A stretch of 64,000 bases of DNA from an uncultured Actinomycetota bacterium (GTDB taxonomy: Bacteria; Actinomycetota; Actinomycetes; Mycobacteriales; Mycobacteriaceae). The translations under genes and the position numbers were made by a program. Positions 15,176 through 64,000 of the stretch are shown piece after piece (the stretch's first letter is position 1; each line of letters starts with the position of its first letter). A model generated the notes under the pieces. The model was not told the DNA's origin. It made no database searches and was given only the letters and a program-made list of their open reading frames with translations. Where the stretch lies: NCBI GenBank assembly GCA_963836495.1, contig CAWIJT010000003.1, forward strand, positions 457,667-521,666, read 5' to 3'.

Positions 15176-15193
15176 CTCAACTCGCGGTATGAC

Positions 15194-15216
15194 GTCCGCT
15201 GAGGCTGGACTTTTTT
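15194..15216 (+). terminator. Possible intrinsic terminator of the tRNA-Ser/tRNA-Arg pair
   Basis: GTCCGC-TGAG-GC(T)GGAC hairpin with one bulge, followed by T6. Confidence 0.4.
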
Positions 15217-15416
15217 CGTTTGACTTCCGCGAACACCTCCGCGCCTCCTTCGGGGTCAGTCGCCGCGTCGCTCAATCATCTTGCAGGTTGCCGGGGCTGA
15301 TGCTGCTGCGCCGAGTAAACCAAATGTTGGCGATACGGTTGTAAATTGTTCGTTTGGTATGTAATCTTGCGCTGCAGTGCATCACCGGTATGTGGTGCTT
15401 CCGTGAGGAGGGGCGC

Positions 15417-15551
15417 GTGTCGTTGGTGGCCACAGACGCCGAGCCGCGGTTGCGCTGCCTGATGGCGTGTGGCGCGAATGTCCCTCGCGCGCAGGTGCTT
15501 TGCAGCTCACGGGAGTCTACTGAGGTGGCAGGTATGGGACGCGTTCGATGA
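15417..15551 (+). CDS. Putative 44-aa small protein or leader peptide coupled to the flavoenzyme gene
   Basis: GAGGAGG at 15405-15411, GTG at 15417, MSLVATDAEPRLRCLMACGANVPRAQVLCSSRESTEVAGMGRVR; TGA overlaps ATG 15548. Confidence 0.35.
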   Translation: MSLVATDAEPRLRCLMACGANVPRAQVLCSSRESTEVAGMGRVR

Positions 15552-17365
15552 TCGAGATGGCCATCGTGGGGCTCGGCTCGTGGGGTCTGTGCGTCATGGA
15601 GCGGACGGTGAACCGGGCCAGGCAGTTGGGGACGCCCGTACGGCTGCACCTGATCGAGCCCGCTCAGCTGGGAGGCGGGGTCTACTCCACCGAGCAGCCC
15701 GACTTCCTGGTGCTCAACAACGCCTGCGGTCAACTCTCCCTCTACGCCGCTCCCGACGGAGACGCTCTTCCGCCGTACGCCGTGGGCCTACACGCGTGGG
15801 CAGTGGTCCGCGGCTACCGCTGGGTGGGTTACGAGTGCCGCATCGGCGCCGGCGGTGACCCCATCCTGCCCACCGACTACCTGCCGCGGCGGTTGATGGG
15901 CGAGTACCTCGCCTGGTTCTACGACACGCTGGTGTCCTACGCCCCGCCCAACCTGGAGATCGTCCGGCACTACGCGGCCGCCGTCGACATCTCTCCGGCT
16001 CTGCGAGGGCGCGAGGCGGTGCTGCTCGACAGCGGCACCACCCTCACCGTCGACCACGTCGTGCTCACTTCGGGCCACACCTTCAACGACGAGCCCGGTG
16101 CCGACGGCGGCGTGCACTACTTGCGGCCCTACCCCATCGACTACTTGGACCAGCGCGCCCCGGCCGGATCCTCGCTGGCAGTGGCCGGCATGGGGCTGGT
16201 CGGCTTCGACGTCCTGACCGCGCTCACTATCGGACGCGGCGGGACCTTCGAAGACCGGTGCGACCGGGCCGACCGCTTGCGTTACGTGCCCTCGGGCCAC
16301 GAGCCGACCATCACCCTCTATTCGCGCTCGGGGGCTCCGTACTGCGCCAAGTCGGCTACCGGTGTCGACCCCTACGGCCAATACCAGCCGGTGGTGTGCA
16401 CCCCTGAGGAGTTCGCGGCGCTCACCAACCCGGGTGCGTCGCCGTTGCGGCGGCACGTGGACTTCCGGGCCGAGCTTCTCCCGCTCGTCTTCGCCGAGAT
16501 GCAGGCGCGCTACTACATCCAGGCCGCGTCGCTGGCCGGCGGCGACGTGGAGTCGACCGAGGTCCGCAACGTCCTCCGCCAAGGCTGGGTCGACGGGTAC
16601 TACGAGAAGGCAGTCGACGTTCTCGAGCCGCGCTACGGGCGCTTTGACCCGGCCACCCACCTCTTCGCCGGGGCAGACCGCCACTACACGTCGGCCGCCG
16701 ACTATCAGGGCCAGGTTTACGACATGATCGAGGACGACCTCACCGAGGCTTTGCGGCCCGGAGGGAGCGCGGTCAAGGCCGCCCAGGAGGTGCTGCGGAT
16801 CCTGCGGGACCAGCTGCGTTCGGTCATCGAGTTCGGTGGCCTGTCCCTCGACTCCTACGTCGAGTTCCAAGCCAACGTCCGGGGCCGGATCAACCGGCTC
16901 GAAGCGGGCGTGCCACCCATGCGCTCCCAGCAGCTACTGGGGCTGCTCGACGCCGGGGTGGTGCGCATTCCGCTCGGACCGAGCCCACAGGCGGTCGCCT
17001 GCCATGAGGGCGTCCGCCTGAGTTCCACGGTGCTCGACGAGCCGACAGCGGTGACGGCCGGCGAGGTGGTGCGGGGCTATCTCGACATGCCCTCGCTGGC
17101 CCGGTCTGGCTCGCCTCTGCTGAACCGCCTCTACGCCAAGGGCAGGCTGACCCAGCTCAGCTACGGTGACACCCCCGTGGGCAGCGTGGCCATCAACGAG
17201 GACTTCCACCCCTACGACACCGAGGGCCGGCTCCAGCCCAACCTCTCGGTGCTGGGCGTGCTCACCGAGGGGGTCCGTTACTTCACCCACTATCTGCCCT
17301 CGCCGCGCAGCCGCCTTCGGGCCGTCTACGACGCCCAGGCGTGCGTCGAGGCCGTGATCGGCTGA
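15548..17365 (+). CDS. FAD/NAD(P)-binding protein, CreE/FzmM-like flavin-dependent N-oxygenase family
   Basis: 605 aa; GLGSWG FAD motif, LVLNN, YLPRRLMGEYL, DHVVLTSGH, GMGLVGFD, SRSGAPY, GVPPMRSQQLLGLLDAGVV and GVLTEG follow the motif order of this family. Confidence 0.75.
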   Translation: MIEMAIVGLGSWGLCVMERTVNRARQLGTPVRLHLIEPAQLGGGVYSTEQPDFLVLNNACGQLSLYAAPDGDALPPYAVGLHAWAVVRGYRWVGYECRIGAGGDPILPTDYLPRRLMGEYLAWFYDTLVSYAPPNLEIVRHYAAAVDISPALRGREAVLLDSGTTLTVDHVVLTSGHTFNDEPGADGGVHYLRPYPIDYLDQRAPAGSSLAVAGMGLVGFDVLTALTIGRGGTFEDRCDRADRLRYVPSGHEPTITLYSRSGAPYCAKSATGVDPYGQYQPVVCTPEEFAALTNPGASPLRRHVDFRAELLPLVFAEMQARYYIQAASLAGGDVESTEVRNVLRQGWVDGYYEKAVDVLEPRYGRFDPATHLFAGADRHYTSAADYQGQVYDMIEDDLTEALRPGGSAVKAAQEVLRILRDQLRSVIEFGGLSLDSYVEFQANVRGRINRLEAGVPPMRSQQLLGLLDAGVVRIPLGPSPQAVACHEGVRLSSTVLDEPTAVTAGEVVRGYLDMPSLARSGSPLLNRLYAKGRLTQLSYGDTPVGSVAINEDFHPYDTEGRLQPNLSVLGVLTEGVRYFTHYLPSPRSRLRAVYDAQACVEAVIG

Positions 17366-17369
17366 GCAC

Positions 17370-18644
17370 ATGACGGACTCCATGACCGGACGGGCGCGGC
17401 CGTTAGTGGCGGTGGGCTACGGTCCGCGCTGCGTTCCCGTGATGCAGCTGGCCGAAGCCGCCGCCGGCGTCTGCGACCTGCTCTGGATGATCGACACCGC
17501 CGTGCCGGGCATGAGCGAGATGACTGATCTGCTCAACCGGTTCGGGCCCGTCGTCGACCTCAAGGGCATGAGCGCCGAGCAGGCGATCAAGATCATGGTC
17601 GACTGGGAGCCAGACGGCATGACCACCTACCTCGACGCCGGGATGGTCGAACTGGCCTGTGTGGCAGAGGGACTGGGTCTTCCCTTCCACAGCCCGGCGA
17701 CCGCCGCCGCCCTCACTGACAAGGCCCGCCAGCGTCGCGCCATGGCCGACGCCGGAATCGATATGCCGCCCTGCCACCTCATCCGCCCCGACCAGTCCGA
17801 GCAGGAGCTCGGCGCCGTCGAGGCCGAGGTGGGGTGGCCGGCCGTGCTCAAGCCCCGCTCGGCTCAGGGCAGCCGCTACACCTTCCTGGCCCACGACGGT
17901 CCGGAGCTCCAGATGCTGCTCGACACCCTCGGGCCGAGTCGTCCCGAGATGGTTCTCGAGGGCTACCTGGCCGACGATCCGGCCCGCGCCGGCGACCCCT
18001 ACGCCGGCTATGTGTCCGTCGAGAGCCTGGTCGCCGACGGCGCCATCAGCCACCTGGCCCTGACCGGCCGCTTCCCGCCCGCCGGAAACTTTCGCGAGAC
18101 CGGGTTCTTCATCCCCGCAGCTCTCGACGCAGCGAGTCGCGAAGCCGTCCTGGACCTGGCCACCCGGGCGATCGACGCACTGGGGGTGCGCACCGGTTGC
18201 CTGCACACCGAAATCAAGTTCACCCCCGCCGGGCCCCGCATCATCGAGGTCAACGGACGACTGGGCGGCGGTGTGCCCGAGATGCTGGAGCGGGCCGCCG
18301 GGATCAATCTCCTCGACCTCACCTTGCGGGTGGCCCTCGGCGAGCCGCTGTCGGTCGCCGGGCCCGTCGCCACCGACCGCATCGGCTACCGATTCTTCCT
18401 CCAGCCGCCGACCGTCTCGGCCACGGTGACAGCCATCGAGGGCATCAACGACTTCAGCGACCGCCCCGTGGTCGACACGGTGAGCGTCCACCAGGGCCCG
18501 GGTGCCGCCCTCGACTGGCGGGACGGCTCCGGCAACCACATCGTGGCCGTGGTCGGCTCGACCGACGACGAGGAGCAGTTGCAGGCCGCCTACCGGCTGC
18601 TGCACCAGGAAGTCACGGTCACCTATACCGACGTGAGGTACTGA
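17370..18644 (+). CDS. ATP-grasp ligase (L-amino acid ligase-like)
   Basis: TDKARQR, LKPRSAQGS, LEGYL, VSVES and HTEIK..GPRIIEVNGRLGG motifs. Confidence 0.85.
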   Translation: MTDSMTGRARPLVAVGYGPRCVPVMQLAEAAAGVCDLLWMIDTAVPGMSEMTDLLNRFGPVVDLKGMSAEQAIKIMVDWEPDGMTTYLDAGMVELACVAEGLGLPFHSPATAAALTDKARQRRAMADAGIDMPPCHLIRPDQSEQELGAVEAEVGWPAVLKPRSAQGSRYTFLAHDGPELQMLLDTLGPSRPEMVLEGYLADDPARAGDPYAGYVSVESLVADGAISHLALTGRFPPAGNFRETGFFIPAALDAASREAVLDLATRAIDALGVRTGCLHTEIKFTPAGPRIIEVNGRLGGGVPEMLERAAGINLLDLTLRVALGEPLSVAGPVATDRIGYRFFLQPPTVSATVTAIEGINDFSDRPVVDTVSVHQGPGAALDWRDGSGNHIVAVVGSTDDEEQLQAAYRLLHQEVTVTYTDVRY

Positions 18645-18645
18645 G

Positions 18646-19581
18646 GTGGGCGTTCAATTGGCCGAGGGACCAGCGCGGTGGACGTGTGCCCTGGTCAACA
18701 ACATGCCCGACTCCGCATTTTGCGCCACCGAGCGACAGTTCGTCGGCCTGCTGGAGGCCGGGTCCGGCGGCGACACGCTCGCCCTGACCCGACACACGAT
18801 GGCCGGGGTGCCGCGGGGCGAGCGGATTGCGTCCCAGATCGCCGCCGAATACCGACCCCTCGAGGACATCTTCACCGAACCCCCGGACCTGCTGGTGGTC
18901 ACCGGTGCCAACCCGATCGAGTCCCGTATCGAAGACGAGCCCTACTGGGCTGATCTGCACGGTCTGCTGAAGTGGGGTAGCGAGAACGTGCCGGCGATGG
19001 TGCTGTCGTGCCTGTCCGCCCACGCCGCGCTGGCCGTCTTCGACGGTGTCGAACGGACCACGCTGCCGGCCAAGTGCACGGGAGTGTTCGCCCAGGAGGC
19101 CGACCGGACTCACCCGCTGGCCGCCGGGCTCTACGGTTCCGTCGTCCTGCCGCATTCGCGGCTGAACACCGTGCCCCTCGAGGCAGTGGTCGACGCGGGC
19201 TACTCGGTGGCGCTGCAGTCAGGGCAGGTCGGGTGGAGTGTGGTCACGAAGACGGTAGGTGAGTGCGAGGTCATGCTGGTGCAGGCCCATCCCGAGTACG
19301 ACCCGTCGAGCCTCGTCCGCGAATACGTCCGGGATGTACGCCGCTACGTCGGCCACTTGCGCGACGAGTTGCCTTGTCTACCAACAGATTGCGCGACCGG
19401 TCCAGATTGGGATGCGCTCTGCCGGATGCATGCGCGGGTGGTCGGCGGCGAGCGGAACGCAGACCTGGTAGCCGCGTTCCCGTTCGACGACATCTGCGTC
19501 CGGGCTCCCTGGCCGTGGCGGGGGACGGCCCAGCGCCTGTACGCCAACCTGTTGGGCACTATCCCGAGAAGGAGCGCCTGA
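18646..19581 (+). CDS. metA: Homoserine O-acyltransferase of the MetA (GATase-like) fold
   Basis: LVNNMPD..ATERQF, VTGA..EDEPYW, nucleophile SCLSAHA, QAHPEYD His-Glu dyad. Confidence 0.85.
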   Translation: MGVQLAEGPARWTCALVNNMPDSAFCATERQFVGLLEAGSGGDTLALTRHTMAGVPRGERIASQIAAEYRPLEDIFTEPPDLLVVTGANPIESRIEDEPYWADLHGLLKWGSENVPAMVLSCLSAHAALAVFDGVERTTLPAKCTGVFAQEADRTHPLAAGLYGSVVLPHSRLNTVPLEAVVDAGYSVALQSGQVGWSVVTKTVGECEVMLVQAHPEYDPSSLVREYVRDVRRYVGHLRDELPCLPTDCATGPDWDALCRMHARVVGGERNADLVAAFPFDDICVRAPWPWRGTAQRLYANLLGTIPRRSA

Positions 19582-19584
19582 GCC

Positions 19585-20871
19585 ATGCACGACGAGACCA
19601 TCGCCATCCACGGCGGCTACACATCCGACGGGACGCGGGCCGTGGCGGTCCCCATCTACCAGACCGTCGCCCACGACTTCATCGACGCGGCCCACGCCGG
19701 TGCCGTGCTCGACCTGGAGACGCCGGGCTTCCACTACAACCGGCTCAACAACCCGACGCTGGACGTCCTCGAACAGCGCATCTGCGCGCTCGAAGGCGGA
19801 ACGGCGGCCCTGGTGGTGGCCTCCGGCATGGCCGCCGTCAGCTACGCCATCCTGACCGTGGCGGCGGCCGGCTCGAACATCGTGGTGGCTCCCCAGCTCT
19901 ACGGGGCCACCTTCACCTACTTCGCCCACGTGCTGCCCACGCTGGGCATCGAGGCGCGCTTCGCCGTCGACGACCGTGCCGAGTCGATCGCCCCGCTGAT
20001 AGACGAGAACACCCGCGCGGTGTTCTGCGAGACGATCGGCAACCCGGCCGGCAACATCGTCGACCTCGAGGCCGTTGCCGAGGTGGCCCACGCGGCCGGC
20101 GTGCCCCTCATCGTCGACAACACGGTGGCCACGCCGCTGATGCTCAAGCCCTTCGAGCACGGCGCCGACGTGGTCGTCCACTCGCTGACCAAGTTCGTCG
20201 GCGGCCACGGCACTACCCTCGGCGGAGCCATCGTGGACGGCGGCCGGTTCCCGTGGGCCGACCATCCTGACCGCTTCCCCAATTTCAACCAGCCCGAGCC
20301 CGCCTTCCACGGCGTCGTCTTCGCTCGCGACTTTCCCGAGCGGCCCTTCACCGTGCGGGCCCGCTCCACCCAGCTGCGCAACAGTGGCGCCACCCTGTCG
20401 CCCTTCAACGCCTTCCTGCTCCTGCAGGGCCTCGAGACGATGGCGGTGCGGCTCGAGCGTCACGAGGCCAACGCCCGGGCCGTGGCCGAATACCTGGCCG
20501 CCGATCCCCGGGTGGCCTGGGTGAGCTTCGCCGGCTTCCCCGACCATCCGTATCACCACCTGGTCGAGCGCTACCTGCACGGACGGGTGCCGTCGATCAT
20601 CACCTTCGGGGTCGACGGCGGCTACGACGCCGGCCTGGCGTTCTTCGATGCGCTTCAGCTCATCAAGCGGCTGCTCAATCTGGGCGACGCCAAGTCGCTG
20701 GCCATCCACCCGGCCTCGACCACCCACCGCCAGCTGTCCGGCGAGGAGCTGGCGAAGGCCGGTATCCGGCCGGAGACGATCCGGCTGTCCATCGGGATCG
20801 AGCACATCGACGACATCGTCGACGACATCGACCAGGCTTTAGACAAGGCCATGGCTGGCCGGGTCCACTGA
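19585..20871 (+). CDS. metY: O-acylhomoserine sulfhydrylase / aminocarboxypropyltransferase (MetY family)
   Basis: VPIYQT, YNRLNNPT, ETIGNP, DNT, PLP-Lys motif HSLTKFVGGHG, IHPASTTH, RLSIGIE. Confidence 0.9.
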   Translation: MHDETIAIHGGYTSDGTRAVAVPIYQTVAHDFIDAAHAGAVLDLETPGFHYNRLNNPTLDVLEQRICALEGGTAALVVASGMAAVSYAILTVAAAGSNIVVAPQLYGATFTYFAHVLPTLGIEARFAVDDRAESIAPLIDENTRAVFCETIGNPAGNIVDLEAVAEVAHAAGVPLIVDNTVATPLMLKPFEHGADVVVHSLTKFVGGHGTTLGGAIVDGGRFPWADHPDRFPNFNQPEPAFHGVVFARDFPERPFTVRARSTQLRNSGATLSPFNAFLLLQGLETMAVRLERHEANARAVAEYLAADPRVAWVSFAGFPDHPYHHLVERYLHGRVPSIITFGVDGGYDAGLAFFDALQLIKRLLNLGDAKSLAIHPASTTHRQLSGEELAKAGIRPETIRLSIGIEHIDDIVDDIDQALDKAMAGRVH

Positions 20872-20878
20872 GCGCACC

Positions 20879-22657
20879 ATGCCATTGACGACTGAGGTGT
20901 CGACGTATTTCGGACCGCCTGATTCACCCTTGTTCGGGGTGGTGCATCTGCCGGTCGACAACCAGATCAGGGGCGGGGTACTGATCTGTGGTTCGCTCGG
21001 CAAAGAGGGGATGGACAGCGTCCGGCTGCAACGAATCCTCGCCGACAGCCTGGCCCGCCGCGGTTTCGGCGTGCTGCGTTTCGACTATCTGGGCTTGGGC
21101 GATTCCGCGCACTCGCAGGTCCGCGATGATGCGGTGGCCAACTGGGTGGCGAGTGTGGGCCACGCACGCGACTACCTCGCGCTGATCGGCGCGCAGTCGG
21201 TGACCGCGATCGGCGTACGTGCCGGCTGCCTGATCCTCGACGAGTACCTGGCCCGGTCCCTTGCCGAATCCCACCCGGTCGACTCCGTGGTCTACCTCGA
21301 TCCCGCCGGAACGGGCAGGCGCTATCTGCGTGAGCACACCACGCTGTTCCGCTTGTCGGCGGGGGAGGACGCCGCGACGCCCGGTGAAGTGTTGATCATC
21401 GGCGGCCGGTTCAGTGACCATGCCGCCGCAGAGTTCGCCGGGCTGCGGATGCATCCCAATCCGGTAAGCGTCGCGGATGTACTTCTGGTGGGGCGACCGG
21501 GCGATACCGACAAGCACGTCACTGCTCTGGCGTCGGCCGACGGCGTTGATGCGATCACCACCGGCGGTCTGGCTGAATGCGCACATCCGCTGGCGATACC
21601 GCTACCGATCCCTGTCACCGCGGTCGATTCGATCATCGACTGGATCGACGACAAGGTTCCCACTGGTACCCGTCAGGCCACACCCCGGTACGTGACCACG
21701 GTGACGATGCCGGCAGAAGGGCCCGACGGCGTCGACGTCGTCGAAAGCATCGAACGGATCGAGCCGAACGGCCTGTTCCTCATCCGCACGCAGCCCGAAC
21801 GCTCCAGCAGCGCGCCGGTGAAGACCGTGTTGTTCTTCGTGTCGGCCCACGACTTGCACGTAGGACCCGCCCGGGAATGGGTCGAATTGTCGCGTCGCGT
21901 TGCAGCGGCCGGGTCACCGGCGGTGCGCTGGGACCCGTCAGGACAGGGCTTGTCGGGACCGATCAGGCGGAACCCTTGGCGCACAGTGTATTCCAAGGCC
22001 GACATCACCGACTCGATAGCGGTGGCCGAACATGCGCGCCGAGGCGGCGGCGAACTCCAGCTTGTCGGAATCTGTTCCGGCTCGTGGTACGCCGCTCACG
22101 CCGCCCGCAGCATCGGTGGACAGTCGGCGATCCTGGTCAACCTGGTGGCGTGGAATTGGCGCGTCACCCCCACCGTGATGGAGCAGCAGTATTTCCGGCA
22201 GAAAACGCTGACTGCGCATGCGGCCAACGACAGCGGCGCCGGCCGCTCCGAATCACAGTGGACGATGCGCCTCGAAGCACGTATCCGTCTGGGACAGAAC
22301 CAGACGAAAAGCCTTATGCACAAGCACCTCCCGCGGTTCGTCCTGCGGGTGTTGAGCTGGATCGGGCTGATATTTCTGCCGGAGGATGTTCTGACCACGC
22401 TTGCCCGCCGTGGAACCGACGTGACGGTGATCGCTTGCCCCGAGGACGCGGAGCAGTTCACTGCCAAAGGCGGTCGGGCAGCGCTTGACCGGCTGCAGTG
22501 GACGTCGCAGCCGCCCCGCCTGATCACCACACCCACCGGCGATCATTCGGCCAATCACCCGGCGATATTGGCAGCGATCCGCGCCGCCGTTCTTCCGGCA
22601 GCAGCTACCTCGTCTAGTGCTGAGCGCGATCATGACCAGATAGGAGTCGGCGCTTGA
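20879..22657 (+). CDS. Tandem alpha/beta-hydrolase-fold protein (hydrolase-2/hydrolase-1-type fusion), putative acyltransferase
   Basis: N domain RFDYLGLGDS with elbow GVRAG (no Ser); C domain RWDPSGQGLS with elbow GICSG and late GDHS. Confidence 0.7.
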   Translation: MPLTTEVSTYFGPPDSPLFGVVHLPVDNQIRGGVLICGSLGKEGMDSVRLQRILADSLARRGFGVLRFDYLGLGDSAHSQVRDDAVANWVASVGHARDYLALIGAQSVTAIGVRAGCLILDEYLARSLAESHPVDSVVYLDPAGTGRRYLREHTTLFRLSAGEDAATPGEVLIIGGRFSDHAAAEFAGLRMHPNPVSVADVLLVGRPGDTDKHVTALASADGVDAITTGGLAECAHPLAIPLPIPVTAVDSIIDWIDDKVPTGTRQATPRYVTTVTMPAEGPDGVDVVESIERIEPNGLFLIRTQPERSSSAPVKTVLFFVSAHDLHVGPAREWVELSRRVAAAGSPAVRWDPSGQGLSGPIRRNPWRTVYSKADITDSIAVAEHARRGGGELQLVGICSGSWYAAHAARSIGGQSAILVNLVAWNWRVTPTVMEQQYFRQKTLTAHAANDSGAGRSESQWTMRLEARIRLGQNQTKSLMHKHLPRFVLRVLSWIGLIFLPEDVLTTLARRGTDVTVIACPEDAEQFTAKGGRAALDRLQWTSQPPRLITTPTGDHSANHPAILAAIRAAVLPAAATSSSAERDHDQIGVGA

Positions 22658-23880
22658 CCGAGGACGCGATCAGCATCGGCGGTGTCGACCTCGCCGACCC
22701 GGACACCTACGCGTCGGGCATGCCCTTCGATGCGTTCCGGAAGCTCCGCGAGAACGCACCCGCGGCATGGCACCCGTACAAGGATGGGAGCAGGTTCCTC
22801 GCGCTCACCGGCTACGACGAGGTGTTCGCCGTGTCCCGCGACAGCACCACGTGGTCCTCGGAGGCGACGGGGGTGTACTTCGACGTGCCCGGTCCCGACG
22901 ACATCGCCGACCAGCGGGGCGTGATGATGTTGACGATGGATCCGCCGCGGCACACCGCCCTGCGCGCTCTGGTCAGCAAGGGCTTCAGGCCGCGTCAGGT
23001 AGCGAAGCTCAACGAGCGCATCACGGACATGGCGCGTGACGTGGTCGACAACGTCGTCGAGCGGGGCGAGTGCGACTTCGTCACCGACGTCGCCGGGGCG
23101 CTGCCCTCATACGTCATCGCCGAACTGCTGGGCATTCCGCTGGAAGACGGCTACCGGCTTTACGAGCTGACCGAGATCATGAACACCGGAGCGATAGGGG
23201 GCTCGCGCGCCATCCGGGCAGCCGCCGAGATGTTCGGGTACTCAAGGGAATTGGTAGCGCGCAAACGTGCGGATCCATGCGATGACATCGCGACATCGCT
23301 GCTGCATGCCGAGGTCGACGGACAGCGTCTCACCGAACGGGAGTTCAACTTCTTGTTCATGCTGTTGATCAATGCGGGCGGCGACACCACGCGTAACCTG
23401 GTCGCCGGCGGAATGTGCGCGCTGATGGACCATCCGCAGCAGCGGAGCAAGCTGGAGGCGGAGCCGTCGCTGCTGCCGATCGCGGTTGAAGAAATGCTCC
23501 GCTACGTCACCACGTTCATCGCGTTCTTCCGTACGGCCACGAAGGACACCGAACTACACGGGGTTCCTGTGCAGGAGGGCGAGCGGGTGGCGATGTTCTA
23601 CCCGTCGGCCAATCGGGATGAGACCCGCTTCGTCGATCCCGAGCGTTTCGACGTGACCCGTAAGCCCAACCCACACTTGGCCTTTGGCGGCGGCGGCGCC
23701 CATTTCTGCCTCGGCGCGAACCTCGCCCGGGTGGAGGCGGCGGCGCTGGTGTCGGAGGTGCTGAGCCGGATGAAGAACATGGAGTTGGCGGGGCCGATCG
23801 AGCGCATGCCATCGACGCTGATCAACGGTATCCACTCCATGCCCGTCCGGTTCACCCCTGGCCGACGCGCCTGCGCGTAG
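22654..23880 (+). CDS. Cytochrome P450 (CYP124/125/142-like)
   Basis: TTG start overlapping the upstream TGA; MDPPRH, I-helix AGGDTT, EEMLR (ExxR), heme motif FGGGGAHFCLG. Confidence 0.95.
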   Translation: MTEDAISIGGVDLADPDTYASGMPFDAFRKLRENAPAAWHPYKDGSRFLALTGYDEVFAVSRDSTTWSSEATGVYFDVPGPDDIADQRGVMMLTMDPPRHTALRALVSKGFRPRQVAKLNERITDMARDVVDNVVERGECDFVTDVAGALPSYVIAELLGIPLEDGYRLYELTEIMNTGAIGGSRAIRAAAEMFGYSRELVARKRADPCDDIATSLLHAEVDGQRLTEREFNFLFMLLINAGGDTTRNLVAGGMCALMDHPQQRSKLEAEPSLLPIAVEEMLRYVTTFIAFFRTATKDTELHGVPVQEGERVAMFYPSANRDETRFVDPERFDVTRKPNPHLAFGGGGAHFCLGANLARVEAAALVSEVLSRMKNMELAGPIERMPSTLINGIHSMPVRFTPGRRACA

Positions 23881-23893
23881 CGACCGCGCCGGA

Positions 23894-26130: not shown

Positions 26131-26215
26131 AACGGGGACTATACGGCATGATATGAGAGCAATCCAATGACTTACGGTCGGTTAAATCCCGGCTTTCATG
26201 ACTACGTAGAGAGCG

Positions 26216-27148: not shown

Positions 27149-27152
27149 GCCG

Positions 27153-28673: not shown

Positions 28674-28677
28674 GCGT

Positions 28678-50323: not shown

Positions 50324-50345
50324 CACTTCTCCAGACGTCTACTCA

Positions 50346-51309: not shown

Positions 51310-51350
51310 TTCATTCCTCCTTGCGTACGTGGAAAGCATTGCCGGACGGC

Positions 51351-57300: not shown

Positions 57301-60300
57301 AACACGCCGGTTCGACTGCCGCGCAACGACCCTGGCGCATACCCGGCGCGCTCCAGGCCCTCCCACGCGATTTCCAGCATCAACCGCTGCTGCGGATCCA
57401 TCCACACGGCCTCGCGCGGGGAGATGCCGAAGAACTCCGGGTCGAATCCGTCGATGCCTTCGAGGTACCCCCCGTAGCGGGTGTAGATCTTGCCCGGCGC
57501 CTCGGGATCCGGGTCGTAGTATTCGTCGACGTCGAAACGGTCTTCGGGAATCTCGCGGATGGCGTCGACGCCGCCGGACAGCAACTCCCAGAAGCCTTCT
57601 GGATCGGGCGCGCCCGGAAAGCGGCAGGCCACGGCGACGATCGCGATCGGCTCGTCGGTGCGCATCGTCGTGACCGCTGCCGGCTGAGCCGCCGCATTGA
57701 CGGATGCCGGTGCGCCGATGCTGAGGACGTCGTCGAGCAGGTAGTCCGCCACGTCGACCAGGCGTGGGTAGTCCATCGCCAGCGTCGCAGGCAACTCCTT
57801 GCCGACGGCGTGCTCGACCCGGGTCCGCAGTTCGACGGCCATCAGGGAATCCATGCCGACGGCGAAGAATCCGGCCTCGTCGCGGATCTCCGCGACATCG
57901 ATCCGGGTCACATCCGCGACGACGTCGCGCAGGTAGTCCACGACGAGTTTCTTGCGCTGCTGCGCGGGCGCATTGGTGAGTTGCTCGACCAACCGGGTGG
58001 TCCCCGACGGTGTCGGTGCCAACGCCGACTGGGGCACCTCACGCTGCAACTGCTCCAGGAAGGACCGCTTCCCCGCCAGTTGGTAGAGCGGCAGGAAGCT
58101 GGACCAGTCGATCTTCGCGACGATCCCGTGTGCGGCGCCTCGTCCTGACGACGCCAGCATGAGCTCGGCCATCCCGGCCAGTGCGTCAGCGGGTGACAGC
58201 GTGCGGACCCCGCGCTTGTCGAGTTGTGCCCGGGCGTCCTCGTCGGCCATACCAGCGGCCGCCCACGGACCGAAGTTGACGCTGATTCCAGGAACACCAT
58301 GCTCACGTTGCCGCCAGGCCAGCCCGTCGAGGAAGGCGTTGGCCGCGCCGTAGGCGGTTTGGCCGAAGCTGCCCCACACCGAGGCGATCGACGAGGTGCT
58401 CAGGAAGAAGTCAAGTGGAATGTCTGCAGTGGCCTCGCTCAAACGCCAAGCACCCCAGACCTTTCCGGCAAACACCCGATCGATCTCAGCGTCGTCCAAG
58501 GCTTGCAGCGGGGTGGTGCCGATCTCGCCGGCGGCGTGCACGATGCCGGCGAGCGGCGGTAGTTCGGCTTGCACGGTGGCCAGCAGGCGCGTGACGTCGC
58601 GCGGAGCGGCGACATCGGCCGCGACAACCCGGACTTCGCAGCCGGATTGTTCCTGGAGCGCGTCGATACGCTGCTGCGCAGCCTCGCTGGGCTCGCGCCG
58701 GCTGGTCAGCACCAGATGCCGGGCGCCGTGGGTGGCCAGGTATCCGGCGATCTCCATGCCGACCGCACCCAGCCCGCCGGTCACCAGATAGGTTGCGTCA
58801 GCACGCAGTTGCAGTGGTGTTGCGATGGGTTGTCCGGTGCGCCGGGTCAGCCGGGCAACGTAGACGGCGCCGTCCCGCAGGGCGATCTGGTCCTCCCCGG
58901 GCGGTGCTGACACGAGTTGATCGATCAAACGAGACCACGCCCCGCCGTCCAAGGCACCACCTTGAGATACATCTGCGAGTCCGCCCCACAGTCGCGGATG
59001 TTCGAGCGAGGCGGCGCGACCGAATCCCCAGAGGCAGGTCTGTACCGGGGATACCGAGTCTGCGGCGGTAACACGTTGTGCGCCATGGGTTATCAGCCAG
59101 ATAGGTGTGCGCAGTTCAGCGGCGGCCGCGGCGCGGAACAGTCGACGTGTGCCGCTCAGGACGTGGAACTGCATCCGCTCCAGCGATTCCGTCGAGGGTG
59201 CCGCGTCGGAATCCAGGGCTGCCAGATGCAGGATGCGTAGTGTCGGATCGTCAGCTACCGCATCGCGCAACACGCCGTCGAGTCGTTGCTCGTCCGCGTC
59301 GGATGCCGGCAGCCCGACAATCTGATGCCGCTGCCCGCGCGCGTCGAGCGCGTCGACGATCGGCTGAACTGCCTCTGCATCATCGGCAATCAGCAGCCAG
59401 GCAGATCCCTCGTCGGCTGGGGCGGCTGAGGGCTTGGCAGTCGTTTTCTCCCAACGAATCTCGTAGCGGGAGTCCATGATGGACTGCGCTTTGCGCTGTT
59501 GGTTGTGTTGTGCGGCAAGCTGTCTCAACAAGCCGACGGACTGTTGGTCGGCGCTCGCACCGTCGAGTAGCGCGACGAGTTCCTCGATCCGGCCGTCTTC
59601 GAGAAGTCGGACGGTGTCGGTACGCATCGCGTGCGTCTCGTCGAGGGCCTGGACAGGCCGGACCCGCTCCTCGCGAAACCAGTACTGGCGATGCTGGAAC
59701 GGATAGGTGGGCAGGTCGAGCTTGCGCGCCGGCCCCTGCTGGAGCGCACCGAAGTCTGGCACGTGGCCGACGATGTACGCGTTGGCAAGGGCTTCGGTGA
59801 TCTGACGTAGGTCGGCGTGGTTTCGACGCAACGACGGGATCGCCCGGGGTGCGGTGGCCGGGTCTGGCCACGCCCGCAGGGCTGCCGCGGTGAGCACCGG
59901 TTGCGGGCCGATCTCCAGCAGCATCGTGCAGTGCAGATCGGCCAGTGTGCGAACACTTTTGGCGAACTCGACCGGCTGCCGGGCATGGCGGCGCCAGTAC
60001 GCGCCGTCCAGTTTTGCGTTTCTGCCGAGCGCGGCGCCGGTCCGGTTGCACACCAATGTCCTTTGGGGCGAACCGAATTCGAACCGGTTCGCATACGCCT
60101 CGAACTCGTCGAGGATTGGATCCAGCAGCGCCGAATGGAAGGCATGGCTGGTGTCCAGCCAGTCACAGCGGACACCGTCGGCTTCCAACTTGGCTACTGC
60201 CTGCTCCAGGTCCACCGCAGGTCCCGACAGCGCGGTGTTGGCACCGTTGTAGGCGGCCACCGACAGACTCGGGAACTCGTCGGTCAGGCTCTCGACGCGC

Positions 60301-62372
60301 TCGGCGGCGGCGAAGATCGCGACCATTCGACCGCCCGCGGGCAAACTGCCGAACAGGCGGCCGCGCTCGGCCATCAACAGGGCGCCGTCTTCAAGGCTGA
60401 ACACGCCCGCGACGCAGGCCGCCGAATACTGGCCGACGCTGTGGCCGAGCACCACGTCGGGCTCGAATCCCCAGGACTGCCAGAGCCGGGCCAGGCCCAT
60501 CTCCACCGCGAACAACGCGGGCTGAGCGTAGGAGGTCTGCCGCAGCGTCTCTTCGCAGTCCGGACTATCGGTATCGAAAATGACGTCCAGCAAAGGTCTT
60601 TCGAGAACGTCGGCAACCACCGCCGCGCAACGGGCCAATGTTTCGGCGAACACCGGTTCGGTCTCGAACAACTCGCGCGCCATGCCGGCGTACTGGCTGC
60701 CCTGACCGGTGAACAACCACGCGGTCCTCGGCCTGTCGGCGCACTCACCCCGGACCAAACCCGGCGACGGGCGATCGTCGGCAAGCGCGCGAAGTACCTC
60801 GCGCGCGGATTCCGTCGAGTTCACCACCAGTGCGGCCCGGTGCTCGAGGTGCGATCGGCCGACCCCGGCGGTGTAGCACACGTCGGCCAACGAGGCGTCG
60901 GGGTGGGCGGCTAGCCAACTGCCGTAGCTCTCAGCGAGCTCCGCGAGCGCGGCCGGGCTGCGCGCGGAGAGCGGCAACACGCTGAAGCGCCGGTCGTCAG
61001 AGGGCGCCGCCGGTGCCGCCGCAACCTGGCCCACCGCCTCGGGCGCTTCCTCGATGATGACGTGCGCGTTGGTCCCGGAGAACCCGAACGAACTGACCCC
61101 GGCAATGCGGGGGCGTCCGTCGCGTGCCCACGGGAGGGCCTCGTCCACGACCCGCACCGCGAGCCGATCCCACGGAATGTGCGGCGACGGCTTCTGGAAG
61201 TTCAGGTGCTTGGGGAGCTCTTCGTGCTCGAGCGACAGGATGACCTTGATCAGGCCCGCGATCCCCGCGGCGGCCTCCAGATGCCCGATGTTGGTTTTGA
61301 CGGAACCGATCAGCAGCGGCCGGTCCGCGTCGCGCTCGGTGCCGTAAGCCGCGCCAGCGGCTTGGACTTCGATCGGATCGCCCAGCGACGTTCCCGTTCC
61401 GTGCGCCTCGAGATAGCCGACATCGCGGGCTGCGACACCCGCGGACTGCAGCGCCTCGTTGATGACGCGTTGTTGGGCGACGCCGTTCGGCACCGTCAGA
61501 CCACCCGATGCGCCGTCCTGGTTGATCGCGCTGCCGCGGATCACCGCCCGGATCCGGTCACCGTCGCGGATCGCGTCCTCGAGGCGTTTGACGACGACGA
61601 CACCGCAGCCCTCGCCACGCACGTAGCCGTCGGCGGCCGCGTCGAATGTCTTGCACTTGCCGTCCGGAGCCAGCATGTGCGCGTGCGAGAAGGTCATCGC
61701 GGTCTTTGCGCTGAGCAGCACGTTCACGCCACCTGCCAGCGCGAGGTCGCACTCGCCGTAACGCAGCGCCTGGCAGGCCTGGTGAATTGCCACCAGCGAC
61801 GAGCTGCACGCCGTGTCGACGGTGACCGCCGGACCCTGCAGCCCCAGCCCGTAACTGATCCGGCCGGCTCCTGCGGCGGCGGACGTGCCGATCGCCACGT
61901 ACGCCTCGATCTCGGCGTAGGTCAGTTGTTCGGAGATCAATCCCAGGTAGTCGTGGGTGCCCAGACCCACGAACACACCGGTCTTGGTGTTCGCCAGGGC
62001 CGACGGCGCGGTGCCGGAATGCTCGACTGCCCGCCATGCCGTCTCCAGCAACAGCCGATGCTGCGGGTCGATCAACATCGTCTCCCGCTTCGAGAGCCCG
62101 AAGAACGGCGCGTCGAACCCCGCTACGTCATCGATGAAGCCGGCCCGGCGGGACACGATCTTCCCGGGCGCATCGGGATTCGGGTCGAAGAATTCCTCGA
62201 CATCCCACCGGTCGGCAGGCACCTCGGAGACCGCATCCCGCCCTTGCTGCAGCACCTCCCAGAACTCGTCCGCATCAGCGGCGCCCGGAACGCGCAGCGC
62301 ATAGCCGACTACCGCGAACGCCCCGCCGATCCCCTGTGATTCATGTGCCCGCGTGGATGTCTCGGTTGTCAA
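51351..62372 (-). CDS. pks: Bimodular type I PKS, KS-AT-KR-ACP-KS-AT-DH-ER-KR-ACP (GPL-associated pks type)
   Basis: Probable TTG 62372; KS DTACSSS and DTACSAS; ATs GHSVG/HAFH (malonyl); KR1 without LDD, KR2 with LDD; [12 protein letters not shown]; [10 protein letters not shown]; ACPs GMDSL and GTDSL. Confidence 0.92.
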
Positions 62373-62640
62373 GGCGCGTGTCCTCTCTGCGCTCGGGTTT
62401 TCAATCGGTCTGGTGGGCGCCTGGGCCCTGGTCACCGCTCGGCGCGGCATCTGGAATGGGCGGCTGGATCCGTCGAATTGCCGTTGCGGTCTGTGCGCGG
62501 TCGGCTTCGCCGTATAGCACCCGCCAATTGGGTGGGACATTGGCGAAGGCTGGTCACAAGCTGTGTTACTCCTCGTCGTTGAGAAGAGCGGCAAAAGTGC
62601 CGCTGTCGTCGTAGAGCGGCATGCCCCGGCCGCCTATCCG

Positions 62641-62671
62641 ACATGAGTAGAACAAGTTCCAAACCATACTG
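62641..62671 (-). promoter_or_regulatory. Putative promoter motif upstream of pks, shared with mbtH
   Basis: Minus strand CAGTATGGTTTGGAACTTGTT-N5-CATGT; 19/21 identical to 50356..50376 with the same spacing to CATGT. Confidence 0.55.
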
Positions 62672-62721
62672 CGGGGCCTCGGGCCGATCCAGAGTTTCGT
62701 TAAAAAGGTCCGGATATTGGA

Positions 62722-62737
62722 TGTGACCCAGCTCACA
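62722..62737. promoter_or_regulatory. Perfect CRP (cAMP receptor protein) consensus site
   Basis: TGTGA-CCCAGC-TCACA in the gtf-pks intergenic region. Confidence 0.65.
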
Positions 62738-62791
62738 ACACCTCAGCGGTCCGGTCGACCGATTGTCGTGATGTGCGCCCAGGGGGGAAGG

Positions 62792-64000
62792 TCAGCGCGG
62801 ATCAGAGCCAATGCGCCGCGAGCGGGCGAAGTTTTCAACCAGGTCGGCGGCGGCCGCAGCGTTTTTGGCGGGCTCGGTCATCTGGTTGGCGATGGCGCGG
62901 GCGCGGGCCACGCACTGCGGGTCGAGAATGGTGCGCAAATCTTCGGCGAATGATTTGTCGGTAGCGGTCGAAAAGCGCCGCGCGGTGCCCACCTTCAACC
63001 GTTTAACCGCAGTTCCCCAGGGTGCCTGAGCGGGCAAATTCCAGAGGATCAACGTGGACGCCCCGGCGCGGAGGCCCGCGGCCGTGGTACCCGCCCCACC
63101 GTGGTGCACGACCGCGCGGCAAGCCGGAAAGATGGTCGCGTGACTCACCGCGCTCACCACCTTGACGTGCTCGAAGTAGGGGAGACTGCTGAAGTCAGTC
63201 CCGCCTGCGCACACCAGCGCCCGCTCGCCTAGCTGCGCGCACGTCGCACCAATCATCGCGAGCGTCTTGGCAGCAGACGCCACCGCTGGGCTGCCAAACC
63301 CGAAGTAAATCGGCGGCGATCCCGCGGCAATCCACGACGCGACTTCCTCATCGGCATCTGTCGACAATTCCAATGTCAGTGCACCGACAAAGGGCCGTTG
63401 GCCGTCGAATTTCGCCCATTTGGCCGCCAGGCCGGGAAAGCACACCTCGTCGTAGGCCTGGATTTCCAGCGATCCGCGTTCGGTGATCCGTCGCGCCGCG
63501 CGGCCTGCAGCCTTCGGTAGTCCCAGTTCGCGACGCTGCACGTCCTCGAGCTTCTTCGACAGGAGCCAATACTCCCACTCGTACACCGCCGTCATGAGGT
63601 CATGGGCCCGTATCGGGTTGAAATGCAGCGTGGCCAATGGGATGTCGTAATGCTCAGCGACGTTGCTAGCCAGCTGCTCAAAACTCTGGCCGGTAACCAG
63701 CAGGTCGGCTCCGTCCGCCAGCGACCTCAGCGTCGTGCTCATCTCGTCCCAGCATCGGGTGCCGAGCTCCCTGGTTTCGCGCACGAACCCGATCAGATCT
63801 CGGACCCTCCAGGGCTTGCGAAAAAAGAAACTCCAGGAGGGGCGCAACGCTTCCATGGTGGCCGACCAATCCAGGCCGAAGGTGACCGCGGTAAGCCCAG
63901 CCGACTCGGCGAAGCCAACCAGGTCGGGCGGGACGGCCATGGTCACGTCGTGCCCGCGGCGCAGCAGCTCGCGGCCGAGTGTGACGCAGGGCTCGATATC
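62792..64000 (-). CDS. GT1-family glycosyltransferase (GPL Gtf/RtfA-like), 5' end beyond the window
   Basis: Frame is open to the edge (DIEPCVTLGRELLRRGHDVTMAVPPDL); SLEIQAYD, YFGFGS and VHHGGAGTTAAG motifs. Confidence 0.9.
   Translation of the reverse strand, partial: DIEPCVTLGRELLRRGHDVTMAVPPDLVGFAESAGLTAVTFGLDWSATMEALRPSWSFFFRKPWRVRDLIGFVRETRELGTRCWDEMSTTLRSLADGADLLVTGQSFEQLASNVAEHYDIPLATLHFNPIRAHDLMTAVYEWEYWLLSKKLEDVQRRELGLPKAAGRAARRITERGSLEIQAYDEVCFPGLAAKWAKFDGQRPFVGALTLELSTDADEEVASWIAAGSPPIYFGFGSPAVASAAKTLAMIGATCAQLGERALVCAGGTDFSSLPYFEHVKVVSAVSHATIFPACRAVVHHGGAGTTAAGLRAGASTLILWNLPAQAPWGTAVKRLKVGTARRFSTATDKSFAEDLRTILDPQCVARARAIANQMTEPAKNAAAAADLVENFARSRRIGSDPR

Follow-up and report, generated by a model that had tools for sequence, protein, structure and literature searches.

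Does the 49-kb region that follows a tRNA-Arg(ACG) gene in this DNA encode a single lipopeptide pathway, as an earlier note had proposed, or more than one pathway? The window, by which we mean the whole 64,000-nucleotide stretch analyzed, comes from a soil Mycobacterium, and sequence comparison makes it likely that the region comprises two autonomous biosynthetic units juxtaposed via a lineage-specific rearrangement. Unit L (15548-30883) is a carrier-protein cassette that handles an unusual amino-acid unit. Unit R, which spans 31156 to at least 64000, is a lipopeptide line of GPL-like type and probably extends past the window end. The two units adjoin solely in this genome, and each is inherited separately.

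Gene content and layout

What the earlier note had observed is confirmed, while its interpretation is partly supported. ARAGORN placed both tRNA genes where they had been reported, with tRNA-Arg(ACG) ending at 15176, and Pfam and NCBIfam analyses recovered each listed gene type in the window (Table 1), including three methyltransferases in all (28678-29403, 32188-32877, and 50458-51339, the last on the minus strand). The left half lies, as had been stated, outside every described GPL locus, and no characterized match for it was found.

Units L and R are convergent with no operon in common, and they are separated by a remnant of the flank and a gene for a secreted protein. The remnant matches, at 71-76% by blastn, a 115-120-aa ORF adjoining the cassette in three relatives (L083, L084, and L085). 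The secreted repeat-protein gene accompanies the ICMT and NRPS genes in another relative (L081, 74.5% nucleotide identity) and was found at none of the 80 unit L loci.

Table 1. Features of the region, with window coordinates, strand, and basis of assignment.
Position	Strand	Feature	Basis
14991-15082	+	tRNA-Ser(GCT)	ARAGORN
15103-15176	+	tRNA-Arg(ACG); with tRNA-Ser, conserved left flank of cassette	ARAGORN
15548-17365	+	Class-B flavin N-oxygenase, FzmM/CreE/PcxL family (NAD_binding_9)	PF13454; PDB 8cp2
17370-18644	+	ATP-grasp, L-amino-acid-ligase type	Pfam ATP-grasp/LAL_C2; PDB matches BL00235, BacD
18646-19581	+	MetA-type O-acyltransferase, HTS family	PF04204, 151 bits
19585-20871	+	MetY-type PLP gamma-replacement enzyme, O-acetylhomoserine (OAH) sulfhydrylase subfamily	TIGR01326
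20879-22657	+	Tandem (two-domain) alpha/beta-hydrolase, accessory	Pfam Abhydrolase, residues 35-142 and 331-560
22654-23880	+	Cytochrome P450, accessory	PF00067; in 13/40 relatives
23894-24562	-	Multi-pass membrane protein, hydrophobic, accessory	69-88% in 19/40 relatives
24501-24941	-	AcpS-type phosphopantetheinyl transferase, dedicated	NCBIfam holo-ACP synthase models
24938-25186	-	Free-standing acyl/aminoacyl carrier protein (ACP)	PP-binding; PRK07081, 93 bits (cutoff 72)
25183-26130	-	PhyH-family Fe(II)/2OG dioxygenase	PF05721; best PDB match DhiD, 8zyb
26216-27148	+	F420-dependent luciferase-like (LLM) oxidoreductase	TIGR03621, 295 bits (cutoff 213)
27153-28673	+	Stand-alone A domain, unassigned code DGSSAGRIAK	AMP-binding, TIGR01733
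28678-29403	+	Class-I methyltransferase (Methyltransf_24), rare accessory	Family match
29489-30883	+	PaaK/F390-synthetase-like adenylate-forming ligase	NCBIfam DVU_1553, TIGR02304, and PaaK models; PDB PaaK, AjiA1
30891-31155	-	Boundary marker: remnant/homologue of small ORF flanking cassette in relatives	blastn
31156-32076	-	Secreted Gly/Ala/Asp/Ser-rich repeat protein, signal peptide; unit R neighborhood	Sequence
32188-32877	+	ICMT/PEMT-family membrane carboxyl methyltransferase, convergent with NRPS end	PF04191, PF04140
33036-45563	-	NRPS-B, C-A-T-C-A-T-C-A-T-E-C-T	Pfam, motif map
45538-50085	-	NRPS-A: starter C, A (Thr-like), T, E	Pfam, motif map, A code
50075-50326	-	MbtH-like protein, 83 aa	Sequence; 86-93% identity in relatives
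50458-51339	-	fmt/Mtf2/phthiotriol-MT-like O-methyltransferase	Methyltransf_11
51351-62594	-	Two-module type-I PKS, KS-AT-KR-ACP-KS-AT-DH-ER-KR-ACP	Pfam
62792-63946	-	GT1-family (EryCIII-like) glycosyltransferase (GT)	PF06722

Occurrence of the two units in other genomes

The comparative search used the PaaK-like ligase gene as marker and yielded more than 400 homologues and 80 genome loci; gene counts refer to the 40 full-length mycobacterial loci, each of at least 20 kb, many of the relatives being MAGs with frameshifted genes. Unit L was found as a block in all 40, often at the same tRNA-Arg site, with the free A domain present in 40, MetA in 38, MetY in 37, the flavoenzyme (FMO) in 35, ACP in 34, AcpS in 33, ATP-grasp and PhyH in 31 each, and LLM in 27. 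The tandem hydrolase occurs in 19 of these relatives and the Methyltransf_24 gene in one, being seen only in L005 and a short locus (L056).

Genes for ICMT, MbtH, the fmt-like methyltransferase, GT, and the repeat protein were present in none of the 40 loci, and none of the 80 left-block loci carried NRPS C, T, or E domains, KS, MbtH, ICMT, fmt-like methyltransferase, or GT within 10 kb; the sole NRPS/PKS cross-matches were A-domain or ER-domain paralogues. Left-block genes were likewise absent from loci holding the right block (within 10 kb for the ICMT contexts). The block of PKS, methyltransferase, MbtH, NRPS-A, and NRPS-B is kept without unit L in approximately 14 soil contigs, in which the PKS (81-88% conserved) adjoins the methyltransferase and NRPS-A is 74-82% conserved. 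A 224-aa ICMT orthologue follows the NRPS end in five of five relatives (L081, L082, L132, L133, and L134), with unit L in none of these contexts. One 3.93-Mb contig (contig_13432) carries both units, L at 1.49 Mb (L079) and R at 3.48 Mb (L082), which puts about 2 Mb between them.

These distributions bear on the reading of the region as one hybrid pathway, in which the left block would make an unusual amino acid and the GPL-like lipid would gain a novel residue, either through loading of the terminal, A-less T domain of NRPS-B by the free A domain or through some other mode of attachment. The two blocks do physically adjoin in the window, NRPS-B ends in a C-T that requires some donor while a free A domain is located at a distance of 4 kb, and distant cassettes are tied to surface glycans, making an envelope-directed role plausible. 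However, NRPS/PKS genes occur at 0 of 80 cassette loci, and M. holsaticum plus four MAG contexts have terminal C-T and ICMT but no cassette within 10 kb. On one relative contig 2 Mb separate the units, the cassette comes with an ACP and an AcpS of its own, and the units converge upon the intervening remnant and gene. Since the halves occur independently in the genomes of relatives, an outcome which forms the genomic part of what the earlier note had itself named as refuting, its claim that left-block enzymes tailor the lipopeptide or supply it is unsupported, as is the link by which the lipopeptide would carry the unusual building block; the two halves were found together neither at left-block nor at right-block loci. 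Separate occurrence elsewhere does not imply independence in this strain, because cooperation between neighboring clusters is possible and enzymes acting in trans do not have to be linked, but we regard a single hybrid pathway as very improbable.

The cassette site and its orientation

The same tRNA pair and the same core genes stand beside the cassette in approximately 16 relatives. The claim that core synteny stops at the tRNA is thus true in part only, as the left block is found at the same tRNA-Arg in these relatives, though in the opposite orientation. In L084 and L085, the cassette is flanked on its far side by the small ORF, DUF4185, and RsbU genes, with no NRPS. Comparison of these flanking sequences shows the ancestral place of unit L to be between tRNA-Arg(ACG) and the small ORF/DUF4185/RsbU-like flank, and likewise shows the window cassette, as judged from its retained ancestral flanks (tRNA-Arg and the small-ORF remnant), to have been inverted in place. 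The gene set is unchanged across three cassette arrangements.

A chimeric join or mis-oriented segment in the assembly could produce the same picture, given that all relatives with the cassette at this site have it in the opposite orientation, that the NRPS-B internal repeats (99-100% identical) are hard to assemble, and that no read set spans the junctions; none of the public runs holds the window, the best having 21% of sampled words in common with it. We nevertheless consider an assembly artifact highly improbable, because the cassette ends still coincide exactly with tRNA-Arg and the small-ORF remnant, as expected after a true in-place inversion, and short soil contigs match perfectly over 30813-30963 and 31042-31192.

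Proposed chemistry and comparison with known systems

For unit L as an autonomous cassette, enzyme families suggest the following route. The FzmM/PcxL-type flavoenzyme would N-oxygenate a non-aspartate amine, the MetA-type acyltransferase and MetY-type enzyme may assemble a C4 amino-acid unit derived from homoserine, or couple it, and the ATP-grasp enzyme would make an amide bond. The free A domain, whose PDB matches are LgrA module 2 and DltA, would then charge the dedicated ACP with the product, the cassette's own AcpS having primed this carrier. Tailoring could follow by the PhyH dioxygenase and the F420 oxidoreductase, plus the P450 or methyltransferase where present; the PhyH sequence reads IHRDQ, and this H-x-D motif makes it hydroxylase type, not halogenase. 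Lastly, release of the unit, or its transfer to an acceptor, may fall to the PaaK-like ligase and the double hydrolase. The hydrolase resembles exosortase-A-associated hydrolases 2 and 1, with TIGR03101 and TIGR03100 matches below cutoffs, and the membrane protein has no Pfam or NCBIfam match. The acceptor would most likely be a cell-envelope glycan, an idea based on three distant non-mycobacterial loci in which versions of unit L are located among Wzx/Wzy/GT2 polysaccharide genes with UDP-sugar neighbors; among the distant versions, L071 has the free A domain fused to a GT2. No sugar genes lie beside the mycobacterial cassettes.

That the left block is no pathway, with MetA and MetY being ordinary methionine-biosynthesis genes among unrelated accessory genes, appears very doubtful. 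MetY does exceed the curated OAH-sulfhydrylase subfamily cutoff (578 versus 495 bits) and, at a median identity of 95% among relatives, is far more conserved than its neighbors. Yet MetA falls below the equivalog cutoff of PRK05368 (257 versus 358 bits), both genes are kept with FMO and ATP-grasp in the mycobacterial arrangements examined, MetA stays with FMO in distant phyla-level relatives, and the two form a single fused protein in L071.

An aspartate-nitrosuccinate module (CreE/CreD or FzmM/FzmL type) generating nitrite for an N-N-bonded natural product is scarcely credible: the flavoenzyme aligns full-length to the L-aspartate N-hydroxylase 8cp2 (E 1.3e-48) and an adenylate-forming ligase of loose CreM likeness is present, but no Lyase_1-family nitrosuccinate lyase was found in the window cassette, and the aspartate pocket is, on alignment, not conserved. 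Relative to 8cp2, R409, R412, and R416 are retained whereas R13W, R266K, R276Q, N413D, R577S, and V571F are changed, which alters four of the five aspartate contacts (R13W, R276Q, N413D, and R577S); in the enzyme of known structure, the N413E substitution abolishes hydroxylation (PMC10404684).

In unit R, the PKS would add two C2 units to a fatty acyl chain, a hydroxyl being kept in the first extension and the second being fully reduced, and the fmt-like methyltransferase (NF045825 and NF045823, approximately 122 bits each, below cutoff) may O-methylate the chain hydroxyl. The NRPS-A starter C domain would couple the chain to residue 1, and four modules would give D-Thr-like, Thr-like, X, and D-Thr-like residues, with the A-less C-T module possibly attaching a fifth, loaded in trans. 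The GT, matched by NCBIfam Rgt and MGT models below cutoff, would place a sugar on a Thr hydroxyl, and methyl esterification of the C-terminus may be the task of the ICMT-type enzyme.

The earlier view of the right half as a Thr-rich, non-canonical GPL-like PKS-NRPS-GT line unable to make the D-Phe-D-alloThr-D-Ala-alaninol core was borne out: the four A codes are DFWSVGMVHK, DFWSIGMVHK, DYWSVAGVYK, and DFWSIGMVHK, the three in NRPS-B being Thr-like, unassigned, and Thr-like, and the NRPS contains no reductase or thioesterase domain. The GL8P paper describes second GPL-like loci as variable and Thr-rich. With Thr-like codes in three of four A domains and neither terminal domain, unit R belongs, as a non-canonical member, to these variable lipopeptide loci of GPL-like type, for which GL8P is the described example.

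Gene content and distribution of the two halves

Genes of the window, whose GC content of 61-70% is that of high-GC actinobacterial DNA, were called by codon-position GC and their products scanned with Pfam and NCBIfam, while tRNA genes were located with ARAGORN. Every gene type named in the earlier note was recovered where it had been placed. The MetY-type OAH sulfhydrylase scored 578 bits with TIGR01326, above the cutoff of that model, and the F420 LLM enzyme likewise exceeded the cutoff of TIGR03621. An Arg-rich plus-strand ORF at 31149-32024 overlaps the minus-strand gene for the secreted protein and was dismissed as its shadow, and two window proteins looked up by exact sequence returned no record.

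Features of the window and of related loci used for comparison
Feature	Sequence	Position	Strand	Remarks
tRNA-Ser(GCT)	window	14991-15082		
tRNA-Arg(ACG)	window	15103-15176		
NAD_binding_9 flavoenzyme (N-oxygenase)	window		+	left cassette, first plus-strand run
ATP-grasp enzyme	window		+	same run
MetA (HTS family)	window		+	same run
MetY-type enzyme	window	19585-20871	+	same run
Two-domain alpha/beta-hydrolase	window		+	same run
P450	window		+	same run
Conserved membrane protein	window		-	left cassette, minus-strand run
AcpS	window		-	same run
Small ACP	window		-	same run
PhyH dioxygenase	window		-	same run
F420 LLM enzyme	window		+	left cassette, second plus-strand run
Stand-alone A domain	window		+	same run
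Methyltransf_24 protein	window	28678-29403	+	same run
PaaK/F390-synthetase-like ligase	window		+	same run
Segment matching flank ORF of relatives	window	30884-31155 (remnant 30891-31155)		directly past PaaK-like stop codon
Secreted repeat protein	window	31156-32076	-	right cluster; 306 aa, signal peptide, Gly/Ala/Asp/Ser-rich repeats, no family match
ICMT/PEMT methyltransferase	window	32188-32877	+	membrane methyltransferase, family 224-229 aa
NRPS-B	window		-	4175 aa
NRPS-B repeat, three copies	window	36211-36510, 39421-39720, 42586-42885		
NRPS-B repeat, two copies	window	37085-37289, 43460-43664		
NRPS-B repeat, two copies	window	37801-38100, 40966-41265		
NRPS-A	window		-	1515 aa
MbtH-like ORF	window	50075-50326	-	83 aa; overlaps NRPS-A start; 86-93% conserved in relatives
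fmt-like methyltransferase	window		-	
PKS	window		-	two modules, KS-AT-KR-ACP-KS-AT-DH-ER-KR-ACP
GT1 glycosyltransferase	window		-	
ICMT/PEMT	L081	17010-17684		
ICMT/PEMT	L082	13760-14434		
ICMT/PEMT	L132	16446-17120		
ICMT/PEMT	L133 (M. holsaticum)	14993-15667		
ICMT/PEMT	L134	13894-14568		
IS element (rve integrase, HTH_Tnp_1)	L132	17843-19104		
Left cassette (L079)	contig_13432	1,492,887-1,514,272		
NRPS/ICMT end (L082)	contig_13432	3,481,260-3,505,000		
N-oxygenase-MetA fusion	L071 (Acidimicrobiaceae)	12568-15447	-	959 aa
A domain-GT2 fusion	L071 (Acidimicrobiaceae)	15311-18097	+	928 aa

The earlier note had read the left block as the tailoring set of the lipopeptide made by the right cluster, and the evidence from relatives, in which the two halves occur separately, argues against this. 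As search marker served the PaaK-like ligase, encoded close to the border between the two halves and with more than 400 close homologues. With each species represented by a single genome, the scan returned 80 loci, taken with 10-kb flanks, mostly from soil Mycobacterium MAGs and isolates (Ca. M. methanotrophicum among them) with a few from other Actinomycetota, against which all window proteins were searched by tblastn. Counted over the 40 loci that were mycobacterial and 20 kb or longer, the A domain was present in all 40, MetA in 38, MetY in 37, the N-oxygenase in 35, the ACP in 34, AcpS in 33, the ATP-grasp and PhyH enzymes in 31 each and the LLM enzyme in 27, with the hydrolase (19), the membrane protein (19) and the P450 (13) as accessories. 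The left-block genes are a co-travelling set, found in three internal arrangements with an identical gene set in each. Only rarely does the set include the Methyltransf_24 gene: one of these 40 relatives (L005) and one short locus (L056) carry it. By tblastn, the ICMT, MbtH, fmt-like methyltransferase, glycosyltransferase and repeat protein were each found in none of the same 40 loci. The weak NRPS and PKS matches in the cassette loci trace to paralogous A or ER domains only, and no C, T, E or KS domains were detected in those loci.

The right cluster, for its part, recurs without left-block genes. The E-C-T end of NRPS-B has full-length matches at 64-81% in many mycobacteria, and in all five contexts compared (L081, L082, L132, L133 and L134) an NRPS with an A-less C-T end is followed on the opposite strand by a 224-aa ICMT/PEMT gene, with no left-block gene within 10 kb of the NRPS end; the ICMT gene is therefore a member of the right-hand unit. 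In L081 the secreted repeat protein also accompanies the ICMT and NRPS genes. Additionally, the block from PKS through fmt-like methyltransferase, MbtH and NRPS-A to NRPS-B is found at 74-93% amino-acid identity in approximately 14 soil metagenome contigs, from which left-block genes are absent. The most direct evidence for the separateness of the two units is contig_13432 (MAG MFD00731.bin.1.5, 3,927,877 bp), which carries both a left cassette and an NRPS/ICMT end, approximately 2 Mb apart. The NRPS genes of L081, L082 and L132, all from MFD long-read MAGs, are called as many short ORFs, a fragmentation probably due to frameshift errors, so that protein lengths in lists of homologues fall below the true gene sizes.

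Each of the two units is uncharacterised, and together they define two recurrent orphan gene clusters of environmental mycobacteria which cluster-calling tools or readers would fuse into one 49-kb hybrid BGC, predicting a product that is probably not real, an annotation error that is avoided here. The right-hand unit represents a second family, of GPL-like loci recognisable by an NRPS that ends in an A-less C-T and by an ICMT-type methyltransferase gene convergent with it. The left cassette, a compact carrier-protein set with an N-oxygenase in dozens of species, is to us the more intriguing half: it is widespread, and it can be tested in the cultivable isolates that carry it (M. paraense, M. 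paraterrae and the Mycobacterium sp. strains E787, E796, UM_CSW and 94-17).

Origin of the juxtaposition

In approximately 16 relatives the cassette lies beside the same tRNA-Ser/tRNA-Arg pair and the core genes found at 4-15 kb of the window (77-90% nucleotide identity), with the PaaK-like end adjoining the tRNA. On the far side of the cassette, as seen in the relatives L084 and L085, an ORF of 115-120 aa is followed by DUF4185 and an RsbU-like phosphatase. The segment directly past the PaaK-like stop codon of the window has 71-76% identity to this small flank ORF, of which it appears, from this similarity, to be a remnant. With the remnant at one end and the tRNA flank at the other, the cassette has most likely been turned around on the spot, its ancestral flanks staying where they were, and the lipopeptide cluster starts past the remnant, at the position held by DUF4185/RsbU in relatives. 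No repeats that could account for the inversion were found: the 3' end of tRNA-Arg is not duplicated, as it would be at an att-like repeat, and the cassette is not bordered by inverted repeats. An IS element lies just past the ICMT gene of L132, which hints that the edges of the lipopeptide cluster are prone to rearrangement.

The junction at 30.9-31.2 kb was compared with public reads; the best run shares 21% of sampled words and allowed the assembly of short pieces only. Several metagenome runs, of soil and of rhizosphere, yielded short contigs with zero mismatches at 30813-30963, 31042-31192, 31482-31733 and 32020-32212, indicating that this organism, or a strain nearly identical to it, occurs in soils at low abundance.

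Enzymes and proposed chemistry of the left cassette

The flavoenzyme aligns end-to-end with the L-aspartate N-hydroxylase of PDB 8cp2 (E 1.3e-48, residues 3-603 versus 4-595), which places it in the FzmM/CreE/PcxL multi-N-oxygenase family (PMC10404684), of which PcxL is an oxime-forming member, with the same three-domain class-B flavoprotein organization. The aspartate entry-chamber residues R13, R276, N413, R416 and R577 are W, Q, D, R and S, respectively, in the window enzyme, which also shows V571F and retains R409, R412 and R416; roles of these residues come from the solved N-hydroxylase, whose N413E mutant no longer hydroxylates aspartate (PMC10404684). No nitrosuccinate lyase (Lyase_1) was matched by Pfam among the window gene products scanned. 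A nitrite-generating role of the CreE/CreD or FzmM/FzmL kind was rejected because of the altered pocket and the missing lyase, and for the same reasons we infer that the N-oxygenase acts on a different amine. Whereas FzmM and CreE work with a partner lyase, the window flavoenzyme has MetA, MetY and an ATP-grasp enzyme of the L-amino-acid-ligase type as partners. The free A domain, which resembles NRPS A domains and matched DltA models, has the code DGSSAGRIAK with the Asp that binds the alpha-amino group kept. A halogenase function of the PhyH enzyme is ruled out by its H-x-D motif, typical of hydroxylases. The cassette MetY is conserved to an unusual degree (median 95% identity, and 65-73% even in other families, with its neighbours at 73-90%), which points either to exceptionally strong constraint or to a function shared with primary sulfur metabolism.

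As a working model only, the cassette would make an N-oxygenated, homoserine-derived aminoacyl unit, which would be loaded on and tailored upon the carrier protein of the cassette and then either released or handed to an acceptor, for which an envelope glycan is the most plausible candidate. D-Cycloserine biosynthesis uses the O-acyltransferase DcsE, the enzyme DcsD for PLP-dependent replacement with an N-hydroxy nucleophile, and the ATP-grasp enzyme DcsG. By analogy, both systems would combine O-acyl transfer by a MetA/MetX-like enzyme, PLP-dependent replacement, an ATP-grasp step and N-hydroxylation, and the enzyme set of the cassette recalls the D-cycloserine logic made one carbon longer, in the gamma (homoserine) and not the beta (serine) series. 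They differ further in that the cassette N-oxygenase is a flavoprotein while DcsA is a heme protein, and in the additional A/ACP/PaaK-like/PhyH/LLM layer of the cassette.

The envelope glycan enters this model through distant versions of the cassette. Polysaccharide genes adjoin it in three distant loci, L071 (Acidimicrobiaceae), L077 (Flexivirga alba) and L080, and not in the window or its mycobacterial relatives; in L077 and L080 the core genes stand among Wzx, Wzy, GT2, UDP-sugar dehydrogenase/epimerase and GNAT genes. The fusions of N-oxygenase with MetA and of A domain with GT2 in L071 imply consecutive steps and a tie to a glycan. Adenylating enzymes, small carriers and partners of the alpha/beta-hydrolase fold near polysaccharide genes are also known from the exosortase-A set (TIGR03098, TIGR03100/03101, PRK07081) and from Dlt D-alanylation. 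Only the cassette ACP passes the cutoff among the four exosortase-A models (PRK07081, 93 bits against 72); the double hydrolase scores weakly with the exosortase-A-associated hydrolase models (65.6 against 202.75 and 58.4 against 168.45) and the ligase reaches 165 against 592 (TIGR03098). In contrast to the exosortase-A set, then, the window hydrolase and ligase stay far below equivalog cutoffs, and there is no PLP decarboxylase. Searches of the literature for the gene combination of the cassette, for DhiD/8zyb and for the exosortase-A cassette yielded nothing useful, with no paper describing the cassette.

We regard it as possible, at rather low probability, that the left cassette is an undescribed soil-mycobacterial pathway in which an N-O homoserine-derived, ACP-carried unit decorates an envelope glycan or glycolipid. 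The unit would be an amino acid or dipeptide made by cycloserine- or canaline-like logic, the N-oxygenase would represent a new substrate class of the FzmM/PcxL family, and in this one lineage the acceptor might even be the adjoining Thr-rich lipopeptide.

The right cluster and known glycopeptidolipid loci

In non-tuberculous mycobacteria, GPL-type surface lipids influence colony form, the interaction with the host and serology. The motif map gives C-A-T-E for NRPS-A and C-A-T-C-A-T-C-A-T-E-C-T for NRPS-B, and in both only C, A, AMP-binding_C and T domains were matched by Pfam, with no reductase or thioesterase. A-domain codes were extracted by alignment to a segment that we take to be that of the GrsA Phe-A domain; the alignment returned the code of GrsA itself, DAWTIAAICK, which validates the register. 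In order, the codes are DFWSVGMVHK, DFWSIGMVHK, DYWSVAGVYK and DFWSIGMVHK, three of which differ from the Thr code DFWNIGMVHK of textbooks by one or two substitutions, and none is Phe- or Ala-like. The modules of NRPS-B share stretches of 200-300 nt that are 99-100% identical, suggesting recent module duplication or gene conversion and also carrying a risk of assembly collapse.

The predicted product would be a peptide of D-Thr-like, Thr-like, X and D-Thr-like residues, X being that of the third module, on a long hydroxy- or methoxy-acyl chain; a fifth residue may be trans-loaded at the A-less C-T, and the lipopeptide would be O-glycosylated and possibly carry a C-terminal methyl ester. Taken together, the codes and the missing reductase bear out the view of the earlier note that these NRPSs cannot make the canonical core, and the Thr-like codes in three of four A domains agree with its Thr-rich peptide; its Thr-rich GPL-like lipid is plausible.

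The ICMT/PEMT enzyme is a candidate for formation of the methyl ester. Short N-acyl peptides with mps-type NRPSs and a C-terminal methyl ester are known in L5P of M. avium subsp. paratuberculosis and in the serine-type GPL of M. xenopi. Such lipopeptides fit an ICMT-type carboxyl methyltransferase at the NRPS end, although their peptide sequences differ from that predicted here, and this type of enzyme may account for C-terminal methyl esters of mycobacterial lipopeptides; to our knowledge, no link between the ICMT family and these compounds has been established anywhere. The L5P peptide sequence is also given in PMC8103206.

The canonical GPL peptide is Phe-Thr-Ala-alaninol, with mps1 and mps2 of 3431 and 2559 aa (Data S1, PMC11978893). 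Like the canonical locus (M. smegmatis MSMEG_0380-0403; M. abscessus MAB_4097c-4117c), the window has MbtH ahead of (indeed directly upstream of) two NRPS genes with E domains, an fmt-like O-methyltransferase, a GT1 glycosyltransferase, a lipid-initiated chain and four A domains. It differs in its NRPSs of 1515 and 4175 aa with Thr-like/Thr-like/X/Thr-like specificity, in its C-T end and in its ICMT-type methyltransferase, and shows neither Phe-Thr-Ala-Ala specificity nor the terminal reductase that releases alaninol. The genes mmpS4/mmpL4a/mmpL4b, gap, rmlA/B, rmt and atf were not found at 31-64 kb, where the window ends just past the glycosyltransferase, and may lie beyond.

GPL-like loci vary between species in NRPS size and predicted peptide, and a second such locus of M. 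abscessus, MAB_4689c-4705c, was described in 2025 as the source of GL8P, a Thr-rich rhamnosylated lipooctapeptide (PMC11978893). GL8P is assembled by eight modules with a predicted thioesterase into the octapeptide TAFIYTTT on a plain N-stearyl/arachidyl chain, and the locus as tabulated in Data S1 has no PKS gene (PMC11978893). Against that description, the window shares two adjacent NRPS genes with E domains behind an MbtH of about the same size (82 aa in GL8P), a Thr-rich peptide with D-residues at both ends, glycosyltransferase and methyltransferase genes and a gene of ~230 aa after the last NRPS, whereas it has four A domains and an A-less C-T in place of eight modules and a thioesterase, along with a PKS of two modules and the conserved ICMT-type methyltransferase. 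A partial M. abscessus NRPS (P0161) matches at 64% over 72% of the query. Compared by gene content and published description, the window cluster thus fits a member of the broader, variable GPL-like family rather than GL8P itself.
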